38,049 bases of DNA from a virus (taxonomy: Duplodnaviria; Heunggongvirae; Uroviricota; Caudoviricetes), in IMG/VR virus record IMGVR_UViG_2802429217_000005, positions 1 to 38,049 of that record, one strand, 5' to 3'. Below the pieces are notes generated by a model. The model searched no databases, was not told the DNA's origin, and saw only the letters and a program-made list of their open reading frames with translations. Shown here piece after piece: positions 5,587 through 28,003 of this stretch (position 1 is the stretch's first letter; every line of letters starts with the position of its first letter). The position numbers and the translations under genes were made by a program.

Positions 5587-5940
5587 TCAGCGACGACGGC
5601 TGGCGGCAGGTGGTTGCCCCCGGTTGAGCCAGAGATAACAACTCCCTCCGTCATCCGGAGAAACACGGTCCACCCAGAACATCTCGCCGTTAATGGTCAG
5701 CGTGTCACCACGCCGTACAGCACAAACCGTATCCGTAAGCACAAATAATGACGGGTTACTTCCTTCAATACGGATCCCACTACTGGCAAAACCCAGCGAC
5801 TCCGGATCGTCAAAAACGCCATGAACCTCGCCGCCACGCTGTGCACCGGAGGTGAACTGCGCACTGATGCCCATCACTTCAACAATCGTACTGTCCACCC
5901 CGGCAAGGGCGGCATCAAAGGCATTCTGAAAATCACGCAT
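5587..5940 (-). CDS. FII: head-tail connector protein FII
   Basis: From the ATG at 5940: MRDFQNAFDAALAGVDSTI...WVDRVSPDDGGSCYLWLNRG, 117 aa, clearly related to but diverged from lambda gpFII. Start chosen by alignment to lambda. Confidence 0.8.
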   Translation of the reverse strand: MRDFQNAFDAALAGVDSTIVEVMGISAQFTSGAQRGGEVHGVFDDPESLGFASSGIRIEGSNPSLFVLTDTVCAVRRGDTLTINGEMFWVDRVSPDDGGSCYLWLNRGQPPAASRRR

Positions 5941-6307
5941 AAACAGCCATTCCACCATCAACGTGTGTTTTTGCATCTGAGGACATAATCAGAATCACCC
6001 GACCAACATCCGCAAGCTCAACGGATTCCCCCGTTTCACCATCAACGCCACAGAGATGGAGGCAGGTCAGAACTCTGATGCGCGTTAACGCGCCGGATGT
6101 TTCCTCACGAACATCATGAGCCGCGGTTTCCCGCTCCCGGATATCCATATTCATAACCTGTACATCATCGCCGGATGACTGCATTTCCTCTTCCCATTCT
6201 GCCACCCGCTGCGCTATCTCTGCGGCACTCCCGGATATATCCGGCTCACGCCCCAGAATCAGGGCCAGTTCATCAAGCCGTTTCAGATTTTGCTCTTTCG
6301 TTGCCAT
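5933..6307 (-). CDS. FI: head completion / DNA packaging protein FI-like
   Basis: Position between E and FII; acidic protein starting MATKEQNLKRLDELALILGREPDISGS at the ATG at 6307; only weakly resembles lambda FI from memory. Confidence 0.65.
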   Translation of the reverse strand: MATKEQNLKRLDELALILGREPDISGSAAEIAQRVAEWEEEMQSSGDDVQVMNMDIRERETAAHDVREETSGALTRIRVLTCLHLCGVDGETGESVELADVGRVILIMSSDAKTHVDGGMAVYA

Positions 6308-6358
6308 ATCAGCCCCCTGTGAAAAAAGACACGGGGGCATTTCGCCCCCGCTCACGGA

Positions 6359-7387
6359 TTATTTCACCTGTACCACCACAAACTCATCCGGATCCGGCAA
6401 CACCATCAGCGGCGCGGACTGCGTCATGGTAAATTCACGGGCGGGATCCCCTACCGTCAGCCAGTGTTTCGGATAACGGGAAGAGGCCACCACACCTTCG
6501 GACAACGCCTGAGCATCCTGAATGGCACCGTAACAACGGATCCCATCTGCAGCAGTATTCCCCAGAACCAGCATGCCATCTGGAAGATAACGTTTTTCGA
6601 TACCGTCTTCTGCTATATAAGACGTTTTCGCCACCACAATGGCCAGATCGCCGTAATACCCCTTGAAGGACACCACTGCGCCCAGATCTTTCACTGCCGT
6701 TTCGAGTTGAGAATTTGAACCGCGACGGGTATCCAGTTTTTCGCGGAACAGCTTAAAACCATTCAGAAGACGCCAGACGGTACCGTCCATAATGGCAATA
6801 TTCACAAGACCGCTGGCCTGGTCGCAGTAGAGGTCAATATCATGTGTAGGATCGAACGTGTCACGATCCTGTTTTGACCACTCCTTACCACTACCCTGAG
6901 TGATGTTATTCTTCGTCGACCTGCCAAAATCGACCTCAATTTTCTCGAACTGGTCTCCTTCCATGGTGTATTTGCCATACAACACAGCATTTACCGCCTG
7001 CATTTCTTCCACCTGGACAATCGCGTGCTCTTCCTGTTTGAGGTTATCGGTAATGATACGCAGACGGCGGTAAGCCGGATCATTCAGTTGAGATGGATCT
7101 TCACCAGGAAGGCGCTCAACCGCCTGCTGGTAATTAAATTCGTGTTTCGGCTTGACGTAGCCCGGACGCAACACGCGGGTTTCACCACCACGATGACGCA
7201 GCACTTTTCCTTCAACAACCGGGGAGACATAGGCCGCCACCGGCGTTTTTCCGGTAATTTTGTCCAGCATCACCTCTTCGGTATGGAAATTCACCGTACG
7301 GCGGAAAAACAGCTCCAGAAACAGCGCACGAAATTTAACTTTTTGTTCGGTATAACCGAGTAACTGGCGGGTCGTAAACAATCCCAT
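6359..7387 (-). CDS. E: major capsid protein E
   Basis: 342-aa ORF with extensive blocks shared with lambda gpE (e.g. PGYVKPKHE, EEMQAV, KEKLDTRRGSNS, GDPAREFTM, QSAPLM) but clearly diverged. Confidence 0.9.
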   Translation of the reverse strand: MGLFTTRQLLGYTEQKVKFRALFLELFFRRTVNFHTEEVMLDKITGKTPVAAYVSPVVEGKVLRHRGGETRVLRPGYVKPKHEFNYQQAVERLPGEDPSQLNDPAYRRLRIITDNLKQEEHAIVQVEEMQAVNAVLYGKYTMEGDQFEKIEVDFGRSTKNNITQGSGKEWSKQDRDTFDPTHDIDLYCDQASGLVNIAIMDGTVWRLLNGFKLFREKLDTRRGSNSQLETAVKDLGAVVSFKGYYGDLAIVVAKTSYIAEDGIEKRYLPDGMLVLGNTAADGIRCYGAIQDAQALSEGVVASSRYPKHWLTVGDPAREFTMTQSAPLMVLPDPDEFVVVQVK

Positions 7388-24503: not shown

Positions 24504-24659
24504 TTACTCCTCAGGTTCGTAAGCTGTGAAGACAGCGACCTCCGTTTGGCTGGTTCGGATTCGTACCTCACAGAGATCTTTCCTCGTTACCAGTGCCGTC
24601 ACAATGACGGTTAAACAGATGACGATCAGGGCGATTAACATCGCCTTTTGCTGCTCCAT
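24504..24659 (-). CDS. hok: Hok-family type I toxin (HokD/RelF-like)
   Basis: 51-codon ORF missed by the >=60-aa track: MEQQKAMLIALIVICLTVIVTALVTRKDLCEVRIRTSQTEVAVFTAYEPEE, near-identical to E. coli HokD as recalled; AGGAG 9 nt upstream. Confidence 0.85.
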   Translation of the reverse strand: MEQQKAMLIALIVICLTVIVTALVTRKDLCEVRIRTSQTEVAVFTAYEPEE

Positions 24660-24841
24660 AGCCTGCTTCTCCTAGCCTTTCGGCACGTAAGAGGCTAACC
24701 TACATTTGTGAGACATAGATTGGGCCTCAGATTAATGTTAAGCGTCTTGCAGGACGCTTAATGTTAACTGTGCTTTTCTTTATCTGCCTTTTGGTGTTCA
24801 TGCCTGAGACAGATAGCCTCAATCACCCGCAGCGATTTTAC

Positions 24842-24856
24842 TTACCCTCCCCTCTA
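24842..24856. repeat. left copy of a 15-bp perfect direct repeat TTACCCTCCCCTCTA
   Basis: Exact 15-mer, repeated at 25962-25976; the flanks continue as an imperfect repeat (CGATACTACAAC vs CGATATACTA...GCTACAAC). Confidence 0.8.
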
Positions 24857-24943
24857 GTTCATTCGATACTACAACTTTATTTTCTTTTCGTTGTCTATAT
24901 AGTAAATAACATGTAATAAAAGTTACTCACTAACAATGGAGAG

Positions 24944-25168
24944 ATGCATATGCCCACACTTATCGGAAAAGTGCTTCGTCGATACACAAGTGCTGTAGCA
25001 ACCCATGTTGACACCCATCTTGAGCAAACGACAAAATATCGTCTTACAGTTGATGCGAACGGTAATGCCACCCTGAACATAGAAAACCCAGAAGTTCAAG
25101 CAGACATCATCAAGAAAATGAAACAATTGCGAAAACTACATAACCGTACAGACAAGGAAGTTGCTTAA
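24944..25168 (+). CDS. small basic protein of unknown function (first gene of the repeat-bounded operon)
   Basis: 74-aa ORF (likely start at the ATG at 24950, GGAGAG 6 nt upstream); its TAA overlaps the ATG of the next gene (TAATG); candidate -35 TTGTCT / -10 TAATAA upstream. Confidence 0.5.
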   Translation: MHMPTLIGKVLRRYTSAVATHVDTHLEQTTKYRLTVDANGNATLNIENPEVQADIIKKMKQLRKLHNRTDKEVA

Positions 25169-25959
25169 TGGGTCCATTGATTATAACTGTGATTCTCGTG
25201 TGTGGTTTTTGGTACACCGAGAATCACTATCAATCGAGAATTCATCACGCAAGAACAAATGGGTGGTCATCCTATTTCTACGTTGCAATGCATGGGTGTC
25301 GTTTTGTTGCTCAAGGATTTCTTTTGACGCTCGGGATCTACATGCTTTTCTGGCTACTGAACTCTATCCCACACATAATCAATATTTTCCGAGACAAACC
25401 TATAGAATGGCATTTTTTTAATTGGTTACTTGAAACCAAAGTGATGGAATTACCACTTTTTGCTGTCATCACCATCATTTTCGCTTGTTGTATTGCTTAC
25501 TCTGAGGGGGTGGATGCGCGAAAAGAAATGGAGAATGAAGAAGCGCGCCAAAAGGCTTACAGGGAGATGGCATCAAAAGATTCACTAGAAAACCTATTGA
25601 TCCAAGCCATTGACACAGAGATGCTGATTTTTGTAACACTAAAATCCAGAAAAGTATATATCGGGTATGTGTCAGCACCACGTGTTGAATTCCACAACAG
25701 TGCGCATCTTGAGATCATACCATTCATTAGTGGTTACAGAGATAAGGACTCACTACGCTACATAGAACAACACCGATACTATGATCTCTATCTATCCAAA
25801 GAAATCACATTTGAGTCCGAACCATTAAATTTACAACATTTTCGACACGTCATTCCTATCGAACAAATTGAAGCGATCTCGCTCTTTGATGAAAGCACGT
25901 ACAGCGATTTTGAAAGATTTTCCGAGCCAATGCCTGACACAAAGCAATTACCAGTATAG
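25168..25959 (+). CDS. membrane protein with three N-terminal TM helices and a ~150-aa C-terminal domain, unknown function
   Basis: 263-aa ORF, translationally coupled to the upstream gene; AAGGAAG Shine-Dalgarno; visibly AT-rich; no family recognised. Confidence 0.6.
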   Translation: MGPLIITVILVCGFWYTENHYQSRIHHARTNGWSSYFYVAMHGCRFVAQGFLLTLGIYMLFWLLNSIPHIINIFRDKPIEWHFFNWLLETKVMELPLFAVITIIFACCIAYSEGVDARKEMENEEARQKAYREMASKDSLENLLIQAIDTEMLIFVTLKSRKVYIGYVSAPRVEFHNSAHLEIIPFISGYRDKDSLRYIEQHRYYDLYLSKEITFESEPLNLQHFRHVIPIEQIEAISLFDESTYSDFERFSEPMPDTKQLPV

Positions 25960-25961
25960 TA

Positions 25962-25976
25962 TTACCCTCCCCTCTA
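25962..25976. repeat. right copy of the 15-bp direct repeat TTACCCTCCCCTCTA
   Basis: Exact match to 24842-24856, 3 nt after the stop of the 263-aa gene. Confidence 0.8.
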
Positions 25977-26282
25977 ACGATATACTAAAAAGCCGCTACA
26001 ACTGGACTGCCCCCATAAAGTTGGACAGTTCATGTTAAGCGGCTTTCAGGGCTTGACCCAACAGAAGTTAGATTGTAAGTATCCCGCTTAAACGGACCAT
26101 CTGGTCTTTGTTCCACGGTGACGTGCTCATACCTCCTGAAATGTGGGAGATTTGAGTATGGTTGTCCCTTATGAGCGAAATTTGCACGAAGCGGATAAGT
26201 TACCGGAGCTGAAGGTCCGCTGTGAGCGAAGAGCGGACCTGAGATTGTGGTATGCTAATTTATGGGGATCAGGTCAATTGTA

Positions 26283-26975
26283 TTAGTTATCTTTTTGCTT
26301 TTCTTTATCCCATTTCTTTGCAGTGGTCTGATACCACTCTTCACGCACTCGTTGTTCCTCGGCTCTGTCACTTGAATTATAGTTGTCCGTTTTAATTTTT
26401 TTGCTTCCATGGGAAATCGGCCTCCAGTCTTCTCTAATCTTTTTCACCTGCTCGGCTATCTGTGTCATTGGACTCCTTGCACCTAAGTAGCTAACCCCCT
26501 CGAAAGAAGCCATATCATAAGAATACTCATTCCGCTCTCTTTCAGTTGAGCCCGGCTGTTTAGACCAACTAATACTAACAGAATAAACTTGATCTTTAAT
26601 CTGTTCATACTTACAAAGACTGCTGTTGAGCGAATGGCCGTTTTTTAATACGCTAACCTTGCTAAATGGTATACCTATATTTTTTCTATGTTCAGCATTT
26701 ACCAGTGGGGGATTAAATCCGATTTCAATATCATAGGCTGGGGCATTTCCGGTATTAGCAATATTGATATCAAAATAAAAAGCAGCCCAAGAATTTGGTT
26801 CAAGAGTCACAACGACGTGAGGTTGAACTGATGCGTCAACCATCCTTTTTGTCTCGTCTGCTAATAGCCTTGTTACTCTCCACAAGAAAAATGTAGCAAC
26901 TGCTGTTAGCAATGCTGCCAAAGCGGAGATAAGTGTGCTTACAGTGTTTATATGCTCTGCGATAAATTCGATCAT
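26283..26975 (-). CDS. N-terminally TM-anchored protein of unknown function
   Basis: 230-aa ORF with one hydrophobic segment (residues ~10-32) and a Lys/Glu-rich C-terminus; AAGGA Shine-Dalgarno; convergent with the repeat-bounded operon. Confidence 0.55.
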   Translation of the reverse strand: MIEFIAEHINTVSTLISALAALLTAVATFFLWRVTRLLADETKRMVDASVQPHVVVTLEPNSWAAFYFDINIANTGNAPAYDIEIGFNPPLVNAEHRKNIGIPFSKVSVLKNGHSLNSSLCKYEQIKDQVYSVSISWSKQPGSTERERNEYSYDMASFEGVSYLGARSPMTQIAEQVKKIREDWRPISHGSKKIKTDNYNSSDRAEEQRVREEWYQTTAKKWDKEKQKDN

Positions 26976-27466
26976 GAGTTGTCCTTGGGGGCGTACTAAT
27001 TGTTTTCAAGACTAAAATAGCGCCGGGCTTGAAAAATTGCACACTTATGGTTCGATTTACCTCAACAGTTAAGGCTTCAGCTTCCCCCATGCACCTCACC
27101 CAGCTCAAGACTGTATGATGTCTGACAAAGAACTTACTGACACTTGAAAACGAGGTAGCGTCTAGGATTTCTCGTAGGGGAAGGATTGAATACGAAGCCT
27201 GTATATTGCTCCGCGAACGCTGCTGAGAGCAGTTTAAATGTTGGGCGTTTATGTGGCCTTTCACTCACCAGCATGAGTTCAATGCCTGTGAATTACCGAC
27301 AACAATATAAAGGGGGTGGCATCATCATATATCCAAGGTAGAGTCAAATCCTTTAACTGGTTTTATGATCAGCGTCAATTGTTTAATTATTGAACGTTTA
27401 CGAAGCGGCACGGGAGTCATATAACTAATGGGCAGGTATAAGCCTGTATCACGAGGAATCAGTAAA

Positions 27467-27646
27467 ATGGCTGATGATAAGACCAAAATCGGTACCCCTG
27501 ACAATGATTTAATAAGTATCAAACAGGATTACGAAAGACGTGATTGGGCTGAAAAGTTTGGAGTTAGCGAGGCCAAACTTGTTCAAGCCGTACAGGCTGT
27601 AGGTCATTCGGCTAAGAAAGTACAGGCATGGCTTAAAGACCATTAA
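27467..27646 (+). CDS. small protein, DUF3606-like
   Basis: 59 aa from the ATG at 27467 (MADDKTKIGTPDNDLISIKQDYERRDWAEKFGVSEAKLVQAVQAVGHSAKKVQAWLKDH); family recalled from the motif pattern only. Confidence 0.45.
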   Translation: MADDKTKIGTPDNDLISIKQDYERRDWAEKFGVSEAKLVQAVQAVGHSAKKVQAWLKDH

Positions 27647-27698
27647 TATATGAGCGCCTTTCTAGGCGCTTTTTTCTCTGTCCTTTTGGAGATGATTT

Positions 27699-27977
27699 AT
27701 GGCTAATAATTTATTTATTACTTATGACCTCATTAAAACGAAAGATTATGCGGCTGTGTATGATGCAATTAAATCTTTAGGAAATTGGGCTTTAACAACT
27801 GAATCGAACTGGTATGTTAACTGTAGTTACTCTGCCGAGGATGCAGCCAAAATTGTGAGGGCGGTCATGGATAGTGATGATAAACTTATTGTTGTAGACG
27901 CAACCAATAACTTAGTTTATTGGTACAATCTCTCTGATGAAGTTAGTAACCAAATTCAGACTGAGTGGTACAAGTAA
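27699..27977 (+). CDS. hypothetical protein
   Basis: 92-aa ORF with GGAGA Shine-Dalgarno 7 nt upstream; followed by a hairpin terminator; no family recognised. Confidence 0.45.
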   Translation: MANNLFITYDLIKTKDYAAVYDAIKSLGNWALTTESNWYVNCSYSAEDAAKIVRAVMDSDDKLIVVDATNNLVYWYNLSDEVSNQIQTEWYK

Positions 27978-27979
27978 TT

Positions 27980-28003
27980 AAAGGGGGATACCCCCCTTTA
28001 ATT
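27980..28003 (+). terminator. candidate intrinsic terminator after the plus-strand gene pair
   Basis: AAAGGGGG-ATAC-CCCCCTTT hairpin followed by an AATT-rich stretch, 3 nt after the stop at 27977. Confidence 0.45.

Follow-up and report, generated by a model that had tools for sequence, protein, structure and literature searches.

The IMG/VR viral record IMGVR_UViG_2802429217_000005 (38,049 nt, analysed at its full length and hereafter called the window) is a Rac/Qin-like lambdoid prophage that carries, between its replication genes and the hokD/sok locus, a cassette of two overlapping genes, orfA and orfB. We propose, with a probability of about one half, that this cassette is a phage-exclusion or abortive-infection (Abi) module expressed by the lysogen, in which OrfA would regulate OrfB, the membrane effector. 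We infer this function from several converging features: both genes are under purifying selection, they form a coupled and practically obligate pair, orfB is the partner that is lost while orfA is kept, the cassette occupies slots that also hold defence genes, a conserved box travels upstream of it, it is oriented against the surrounding genes and a hairpin bounds it on the right. Expression of the cassette on its own in the lysogen is probable.

The cassette is mobile cargo of several phage slots

The genes that surround the cassette lie on the minus strand. On one side are a cro-like gene, YdaT, an O-like gene, DUF1627 and DUF977, and on the other side of the cassette are hokD, DUF968, RusA and Q, with the lysis and terminase genes after them. 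Transcription of orfA and orfB opposes this early-right direction, as a preliminary description of the DNA, made from the letters alone, had stated. Ordinary hokD loci, with which the homology of the window ends at about position 24853, are found in 4,312 of 5,426 complete E. coli genomes, and only 7 of the 5,426 carry the cassette at the DUF977-hokD slot, so that it has to be regarded as dispensable cargo, inserted against early-right transcription. One strain, D217-5, is 99.3% identical over the region. Sibling lambdoid prophages hold other cargo in this slot, namely AbiH with a hypothetical gene, an alpha/beta hydrolase or QueH/DUF1971, mostly on the strand opposite the early genes. In the case of E. 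coli S1bESBLb (L141:4343-6732), an AbiH-family gene and a 463-aa hypothetical gene stand there on the opposite strand, which marks the DUF977-hokD interval as a hotspot in which Rac/Qin-like prophages keep cargo or defence genes.

The cassette is also present in the isolated phages Klebsiella ST15-OXA48phi14.1, Salmonella SEN4/SEN5, Pseudoalteromonas C5a and Cronobacter phiES15, as well as near integrases and on a megaplasmid. A strict motif scan of IMG/VR returned 185 viral contigs, 80 of which were kept. More than half of these loci (43/80) were P2-like, with the pair lying between gpA/DinI and the portal gene Q, 18 were lambdoid and 19 belonged to other types. Four of the lambdoid loci had the arrangement of the window and about 12 had a 34%-identical pair right after the antiterminator Q. 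The post-Q pair (lambdoid loci L120-L133, around 5700-6780) is in the orientation of late transcription, in a slot used by Stx and other accessory genes carried by prophages (morons). The P2 gpA-Q interval is an experimentally defined defence hotspot (Rousset et al. 2022, PMC9122126). In this slot the neighbours of the cassette include bSEFIR in the Klebsiella phage and, in CFT073, a TIGR02391 gene resembling PD-Lambda-3_B/HEPN. Indeed, when the Klebsiella phage, SEN5 and CFT073 homologs were compared with PADLOC-DB v2.0.0, they gave no match themselves and it was their neighbours that matched bSEFIR and PD-Lambda-3_B. The location had been called typical of exclusion or Abi modules. This holds in so far as the cassette recurs in the P2 gpA-Q hotspot, after Q and in an AbiH-bearing slot; it does not extend to a match with any known defence model.

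Taken as a whole, the cassette is dispensable, sits in several slots of unrelated phages, is replaced by other cargo in sibling prophages and has its own putative regulatory flanks. It is thus a mobile, phage-borne, two-gene moron that has entered several independent accessory slots. Might it nevertheless serve the phage's own life cycle, in lysis timing, in the control of genome injection or exit, or in counter-defence? The post-Q loci, where the homologous pair follows the direction of late transcription, and the P2-like phages, where it shares the orientation of the early gene A, would agree with such a role. The window copy, however, opposes the early-right operon, the cassette is also found outside prophages, and both the 7 of 5,426 E. 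coli genomes that carry it at this slot and its presence in a minority of P2-like phages indicate that it can be dispensed with. We regard this explanation as very improbable, the least probable of those considered here.

The two genes form a close to obligate pair

The features of the coding region are the following.

24938..24943, plus strand: Shine-Dalgarno sequence GGAGAG of orfA, identified from the sequence, 8 nt to the ATG at 24950
24950..25168, plus strand: orfA, 72 aa, product basic and soluble; alternative ATG at 24944
25154..25160, plus strand: Shine-Dalgarno sequence AAGGAAG of orfB, within the 3' end of orfA, identified from the sequence
25166-25170, plus strand: TAATG overlap, in which the orfA stop and the orfB start share one base
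25168..25959, plus strand: orfB, 263 aa

Counted from its first ATG, the open reading frame (ORF) 24944..25168 on the plus strand encodes 74 aa. The ATG at 24950 is the likelier start, because GGAGAG stands 8 nt upstream of it and because the RefSeq product in strain D217-5 has 72 aa. With this start, the small basic soluble protein of about 72 aa of the preliminary description is present, with an isoelectric point (pI) of 9.7. The translational coupling to a 263-aa ORF that had also been described could be read directly in the TAATG overlap.

When the pair is compared with a homolog of 83% identity from a P2-like viral contig, the ratio of nonsynonymous to synonymous substitution rates (dN/dS) is 0.085 for orfA and 0.036 for orfB, and homologs of both genes are conserved over many genera. 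Therefore, orfA and orfB are real genes under strong purifying selection and not chance ORFs. To measure how strictly they are paired, we took 140 fetched loci, which contain 128 intact orfB homologs that could be tested; the loci are not all independent and cover many genera. In 127 of the 128, a small ORF of 40-125 aa lies directly upstream on the same strand, at a distance of -13 to +57 nt, mostly 0-12 nt, and 116 of these 127 small ORFs are recognised by the orfA hidden Markov model. Examples of orfB homologs with the partner just upstream come from the Pantoea chromosome, from Photorhabdus, from an Ignatzschineria prophage remnant and from a metagenomic contig, where restriction enzymes lie beside the pair. 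Partners in Pantoea, Photorhabdus, Xenorhabdus and Rahnella were also retrieved with a profile built from the small proteins, and their locus tags stand next to those of orfB homologs. The pairing is thus close to obligate and OrfA co-varies with OrfB; the preliminary description, which would have fallen had the two ORFs never occurred together elsewhere, stands on this point.

Where the pair is broken, it is broken on one side. Wherever an orfA-like ORF has no intact orfB beside it, orfB is either frameshifted, as in five species, or deleted, as in the P2-like prophage of an O22:H8 strain, and the reverse, an intact orfB that has lost orfA, was not seen among the fetched loci. The copies in which orfB is frameshifted or split and orfA intact are those of a Pseudomonas megaplasmid, Pantoea septica, Xenorhabdus vietnamensis and two Photorhabdus species (L028, L032, L034, L036, L038). 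If it is OrfB that is costly or toxic, such an asymmetry is to be expected.

The same asymmetry, in which orfA persists beside a damaged orfB and the opposite is never found, would also suit a toxin-antitoxin (TA) or addiction module with no dedicated anti-phage role, with OrfB as a membrane toxin and OrfA as a labile protein antitoxin, so that post-segregational killing would stabilise the prophage or element. The gene layout is that of a classic type II TA locus: the small gene comes first, its stop codon overlaps the start codon of the larger one (TAATG) and a partner is present in 127 of 128 cases; besides, the cassette directly adjoins hokD/sok, a locus of the addiction type, and it is carried on prophages, near integrases and on a megaplasmid. 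OrfA, however, has no DNA-binding or antitoxin domain (ribbon-helix-helix, helix-turn-helix, AbrB or similar) that could be recognised with family libraries or in its model, which has a helix-hairpin-helix arrangement, and addiction does not account for the stable chromosomal copies of Pantoea. As TA and Abi functions are not mutually exclusive, this explanation also overlaps the exclusion/Abi reading. As an account of the cassette in its own right we consider it unlikely.

OrfB is predicted to be a membrane-anchored protein with an Sm-like domain

Four regions can be distinguished in OrfB.

25168..25503, plus strand: residues 1-112, membrane region with 2-3 transmembrane (TM) helices, from conservation, AlphaFold2 helices and hydropathy
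25504..25614, plus strand: residues 113-149, charged helical linker in the AlphaFold2 model, the last helix of which corresponds to the N-terminal helix of an Sm fold
25615..25902, plus strand: residues 150-245, Sm/LSm-like beta-barrel domain
25903..25959, plus strand: C-terminal tail, variable and of low confidence, with the stop codon, from conservation and AlphaFold2

The AlphaFold2 model of OrfB (predicted local distance difference test, pLDDT, 85) has helices at residues 2-19, 32-74 and 97-122, the linker at 113-149 and the beta-barrel at 150-245. Three N-terminal TM helices had been proposed. On the Kyte-Doolittle scale, TM2 (about residues 47-70) and TM3 (about 94-112) are clear and the N-terminal helix (3-16) is short, so the count is given as 2-3. 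An OrfB homolog is listed with "2 TM" by Phobius (Rousset et al., Table S5B, PMC9122126). OrfB is an inner-membrane protein and, to judge by its positive-inside distribution of charges, probably has its N terminus outside and its C terminus in the cytoplasm. The cytoplasmic part is acidic (pI about 5). According to the model, OrfB is a membrane-anchored protein in which a helical linker and then a domain of Sm/LSm fold are placed in the cytoplasm: an N-terminal helix is followed by a strongly bent, five-stranded antiparallel barrel, the two elements that define the fold. In the preliminary description this part figured as a cytoplasmic domain of about 150 aa, the fold of which could not be seen from the letters. 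The search of the BFVD structure collection matched only small uncharacterised Sm-like viral proteins. The profile search for a solved structure gave a single match, which was spurious since it was to a His-tag, and was discarded.

Conservation is concentrated in a few places of the protein. Alignments of OrfB show invariant G13, G43, K159-S-R-K-V-Y164-x-G166, S188, R191 and Y204, together with the conserved motif P185-x-(I/L)-S-G-Y-R-D-K-D. The loops KSRKVYxG and SGYRDKD are retained across about 2,900 clusters, and the cytoplasmic loop ARxNGWxxYFxVAxxG is conserved as well (G13, G32, Y36, G43, F46). The structure of OrfA, predicted with database-derived homolog sequences, consists of a helix, a conserved beta-hairpin (VDANGNATLN) and a second helix (pLDDT 80).

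Neither protein rose above noise against Pfam or NCBIfam. In PHROGs, OrfA has a significant full-length match to phrog_32583 (E = 8.7e-55), OrfB matches phrog_3630 over residues 1-256 of the 274-position profile (E = 4.8e-75) and the C-terminal half of OrfB matches phrog_23864 (E = 6.3e-91). All three families are annotated as "unknown function", so the earlier statement that no family could be recognised for either protein is confirmed for Pfam, NCBIfam and PADLOC, with these PHROGs families as the only matches. A first search for OrfB homologs gave 115 clusters, nearly all from Enterobacterales and none with a name. The exhaustive profile search raised this to 2,923 clusters at 50% identity (E ≤ 1e-3), or 2,149 at E ≤ 1e-10. 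The OrfB family is therefore large, uncharacterised and well beyond a prophage oddity. One of 47 distant OrfB relatives matched Pfam DUF6338 (PF19865; E = 1.5e-5), from which a remote relationship between OrfB and this family, itself uncharacterised, is possible; OrfB and 10 further distant members gave no match to DUF6338, and the link is marginal. A search of the literature by accession, motif or Sm-like fold returned nothing relevant to OrfA or OrfB.

Upstream box, repeats and hairpin

The cassette is flanked by the following elements.

24842..24856, no strand: direct repeat TTACCCTCCCCTCTA, left copy, 15 nt, exact, at the place where ordinary hokD/sok homology ends
24891..24903, plus strand: conserved upstream box TTGTCTATATAGT, of the form TTGTC(T/C)TATA(G/A)T, 50-60 nt before orfA in lambdoid and P2-like cassettes
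25962..25976, no strand: direct repeat TTACCCTCCCCTCTA, right copy, 15 nt, exact, 3 nt past the orfB stop
25989..26046, no strand: imperfect stable hairpin at the right end of the cassette, -30.1 kcal/mol (plus strand) and -34 kcal/mol (minus strand), z-scores -4.0 and -3.4

The preliminary description had put a promoter at TTGTCT-17-TAATAA. These letters are present, and TTGTCT, its proposed -35 hexamer, falls inside the upstream box; its -10 hexamer is poor and the consensus scan did not call the promoter. Because the box is conserved across cassettes of different phages, TATAGT (24898-24903), also contained in it, is the better -10 candidate. TTGTCTATATAGT probably serves the cassette, together with which it travels, as a regulatory or promoter sequence. 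In several P2-like cassettes (L064:5880-5910 and L091), the interval from the upstream box to the start of orfA contains a GC-rich hairpin with T residues after it (AAACGCCGCTGCCAGCGGCGTTTG). This hairpin could be an attenuator in the 5' leader and is absent from the cassette of the window.

The repeat TTACCCTCCCCTCTA occurs only twice in the window, and no shuffled sequence out of 100 held two copies. Fourteen of the 15 bases of the left copy are kept in strain D217-5. That the repeat is a target-site duplication was considered and is not supported: none of the 5,426 E. coli genomes showed an empty site, and other cassettes lack the repeat. The two copies that bracket the cassette may be a recombination scar or may be there by chance. 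On the right side, a U-run follows the hairpin 25989-26046 on the minus strand only, so that this hairpin probably terminates leftward transcription approaching orfB; its effect on orfAB transcripts is uncertain.

How the cassette might exclude phages

If the cassette is an exclusion/Abi module, OrfB might oligomerise through its Sm-like domain into a ring, as Sm and Hfq proteins do. Such a ring would bundle 12-21 TM helices and could form a latent pore or gate at the site of DNA entry. OrfA might bind the acidic cytoplasmic domain of OrfB through its conserved beta-hairpin and helix, and would either keep OrfB inactive in the manner of an antitoxin or couple it to a trigger. Infection would then release or activate OrfB, leading to collapse of the membrane potential or to a block of genome entry. 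A more daring version, which we offer as a speculative and rather improbable idea, is that OrfB would be the first membrane-tethered Sm ring to serve as an immune effector-sensor. In this version the invariant basic loops KSRK and YRDKD would sense phage nucleic acid or protein, possibly the incoming genome, at the inner membrane and the multi-helix pore would open, while OrfA would cap the Sm interface as an assembly inhibitor, comparable to pICln, which holds Sm proteins in an open ring.

Several results weigh against a role in defence. Neither OrfA and OrfB (no match at E ≤ 1) nor the 47 distant OrfB relatives matched anything in PADLOC-DB v2.0.0, and the family motifs were not matched in the DefensePredictor supplements or in Tables S2A and S2B, which list the systems tested by Rousset et al. 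(PMC9122126). In 40 loci, only about 8 of 148 immediate neighbours matched PADLOC models. The P2 hotspots also hold cargo unrelated to defence, such as partition systems and cytolethal distending toxin (PMC9122126), and many copies of the cassette are fixed in chromosomes among metabolic or housekeeping genes (Pantoea, Photorhabdus and others), the Pantoea copy lying between an NMT1-like gene and peptidase M19/pqq. The consensus sigma-70 scan called no promoter upstream of orfA. Finally, the pattern of orfB pseudogenes is equally expected from the ordinary decay of mobile elements.

Other genes around the cassette

The hokD toxin gene is located at 24504-24659 on the minus strand and sok was placed at 24657-24826 on the same strand (Rfam RF01794, 81.8 bits). 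Since hokD/sok (24504-24826) abuts the upstream region of the cassette, the two units are divergent and may share promoter space.

On the other side, the cassette adjoins a gene for a 230-aa protein with one N-terminal TM helix (26283-26975, minus strand), which belongs to PHROG 11802 (unknown function) and shows a faint resemblance to SLATT_4 (E = 0.84). This gene travels with the cassette in the 7 E. coli genomes and in the IMG/VR contigs L059-L062, and its product may be further cargo or a defence candidate. Between the two lies a segment of 76 bp (26103-26178) that shares about 90% identity with a portion of the site-specific/tyrosine integrase genes of hundreds of E. coli genomes. It is probably the leftover of an integrase gene, and it hints at a past insertion or recombination event. 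Further to the right, a DUF3606 small protein gene (27428-27646, plus strand) and a 92-aa hypothetical gene (about 27700-27980, plus strand), both opposed to early-right transcription, complete an accessory block of about 3 kb and low GC content (about 40%) that runs from about 24860 to 28000.

Significance and comparison with known systems

What is new in these results? As a sequence, the family is already known, because it is contained in PHROGs and in the hotspot catalogue of Rousset et al. In the sources searched, it has neither a name nor a Pfam or defence-database model, and no tested phenotype was found for it. The present analysis adds that the fold is predicted to be Sm-like, that the family is large, that OrfA is an almost obligate partner and that the cassette occupies several hotspots. 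If the cassette is indeed a defence or exclusion system, it would be a compact (about 1.1 kb), widespread and unnamed one, with a membrane-anchored Sm-like effector that is not in any catalogued system, and it would account for a cargo that recurs when P2-like and lambdoid prophages of E. coli, Klebsiella and Salmonella are compared. Should the effector-sensor ring be true, a new mechanistic class of Abi or superinfection exclusion would extend over thousands of protein clusters; should the cassette be only an addiction module or a channel, it would be ordinary prophage cargo. Whatever its role, OrfB is unusual in structure, since the Sm fold, which ordinarily belongs to RNA chaperones, is here tethered to the membrane and has a small partner of its own. 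The small size, clear boundaries and invariant residues of the cassette make it directly testable.

The closest relatives in a published catalogue are two entries of Table S5B of Rousset et al. (PMC9122126). Entry #43, with 93 occurrences, is a homolog about 60% identical to OrfB that has TLKSRKVYIG and ISGYRDKDTL; it was entered as a lone "2 TM" protein, its small partner not being included. Entry #57, with 75 occurrences, is a distant OrfB homolog together with a 78-aa small partner. Like the pair of the window, the two entries belong to the accessory cargo of phages and have no Pfam domain. Their copies occupy the P2 gpA-Q slot, whereas the window copy is in the lambdoid DUF977-hokD slot. 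The pair of the P2-like prophage of CFT073 (WP_001292590 and WP_000529102) is in Table S5A of the same study. Membership in the "2TM-1TM-TIR" or "3HP" systems of Rousset et al. was examined and rejected, as the neighbour in Klebsiella is a separate bSEFIR gene and the motifs of the family are missing from the tables of tested systems.

With Sm, LSm and Hfq proteins, OrfB shares 10-20% sequence identity and differs from them in being tethered to the membrane by 2-3 TM helices and in having a 20-residue helical insert before the last strands. The canonical RNA-binding loops of Sm proteins are loops 3 and 5. In OrfB, loop 3 is variable and the invariant residues are in the beta1-beta2 and beta3-beta4 loops, which makes RNA binding of the canonical Sm type doubtful.

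In mechanosensitive channels of the MscS family, a cytoplasmic domain that belongs to the LSM superfamily comes after three TM helices, and the protein assembles as a ring. The 2-3 TM helices and cytosolic Sm-like domain of OrfB recall this type of channel, and OrfB could accordingly be thought of as a small-conductance channel or membrane sensor of MscS-like logic, regulated by OrfA, that would help the host under osmotic, ionic or envelope stress as a case of lysogenic conversion. The very large family (about 2,900 clusters) and the fact that Pantoea, Photorhabdus and others have copies at fixed positions amid metabolic genes would be in line with a service to host physiology. OrfB, however, matches neither Pfam MS_channel nor, in structure, the beta-domain of MscS, it lacks the C-terminal alpha/beta domain of MscS, and it has a helical linker where MscS joins TM3 directly to the beta-domain. 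It also differs from MscS in having an obligate small partner gene, and the distribution of the cassette is strongly biased toward phage accessory and defence slots. We therefore hold this explanation to be an improbable one.

As a proposed exclusion/Abi module, the cassette can be compared with prophage- or satellite-borne systems that have membrane effectors, such as RexAB of lambda, gop-beta-cII of P4 and CBASS Cap15. No relationship of sequence or fold was detected between these and OrfA or OrfB, and OrfA differs from their partners in having only 72 aa, with no sensor domain. The likeness is in organisation: like the cassette, these systems are dispensable, are carried by prophages or satellites in accessory slots, and combine a soluble partner with a membrane protein that is thought to disrupt membranes. 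P4 gop is toxic when beta is missing (cited in PMC9122126).

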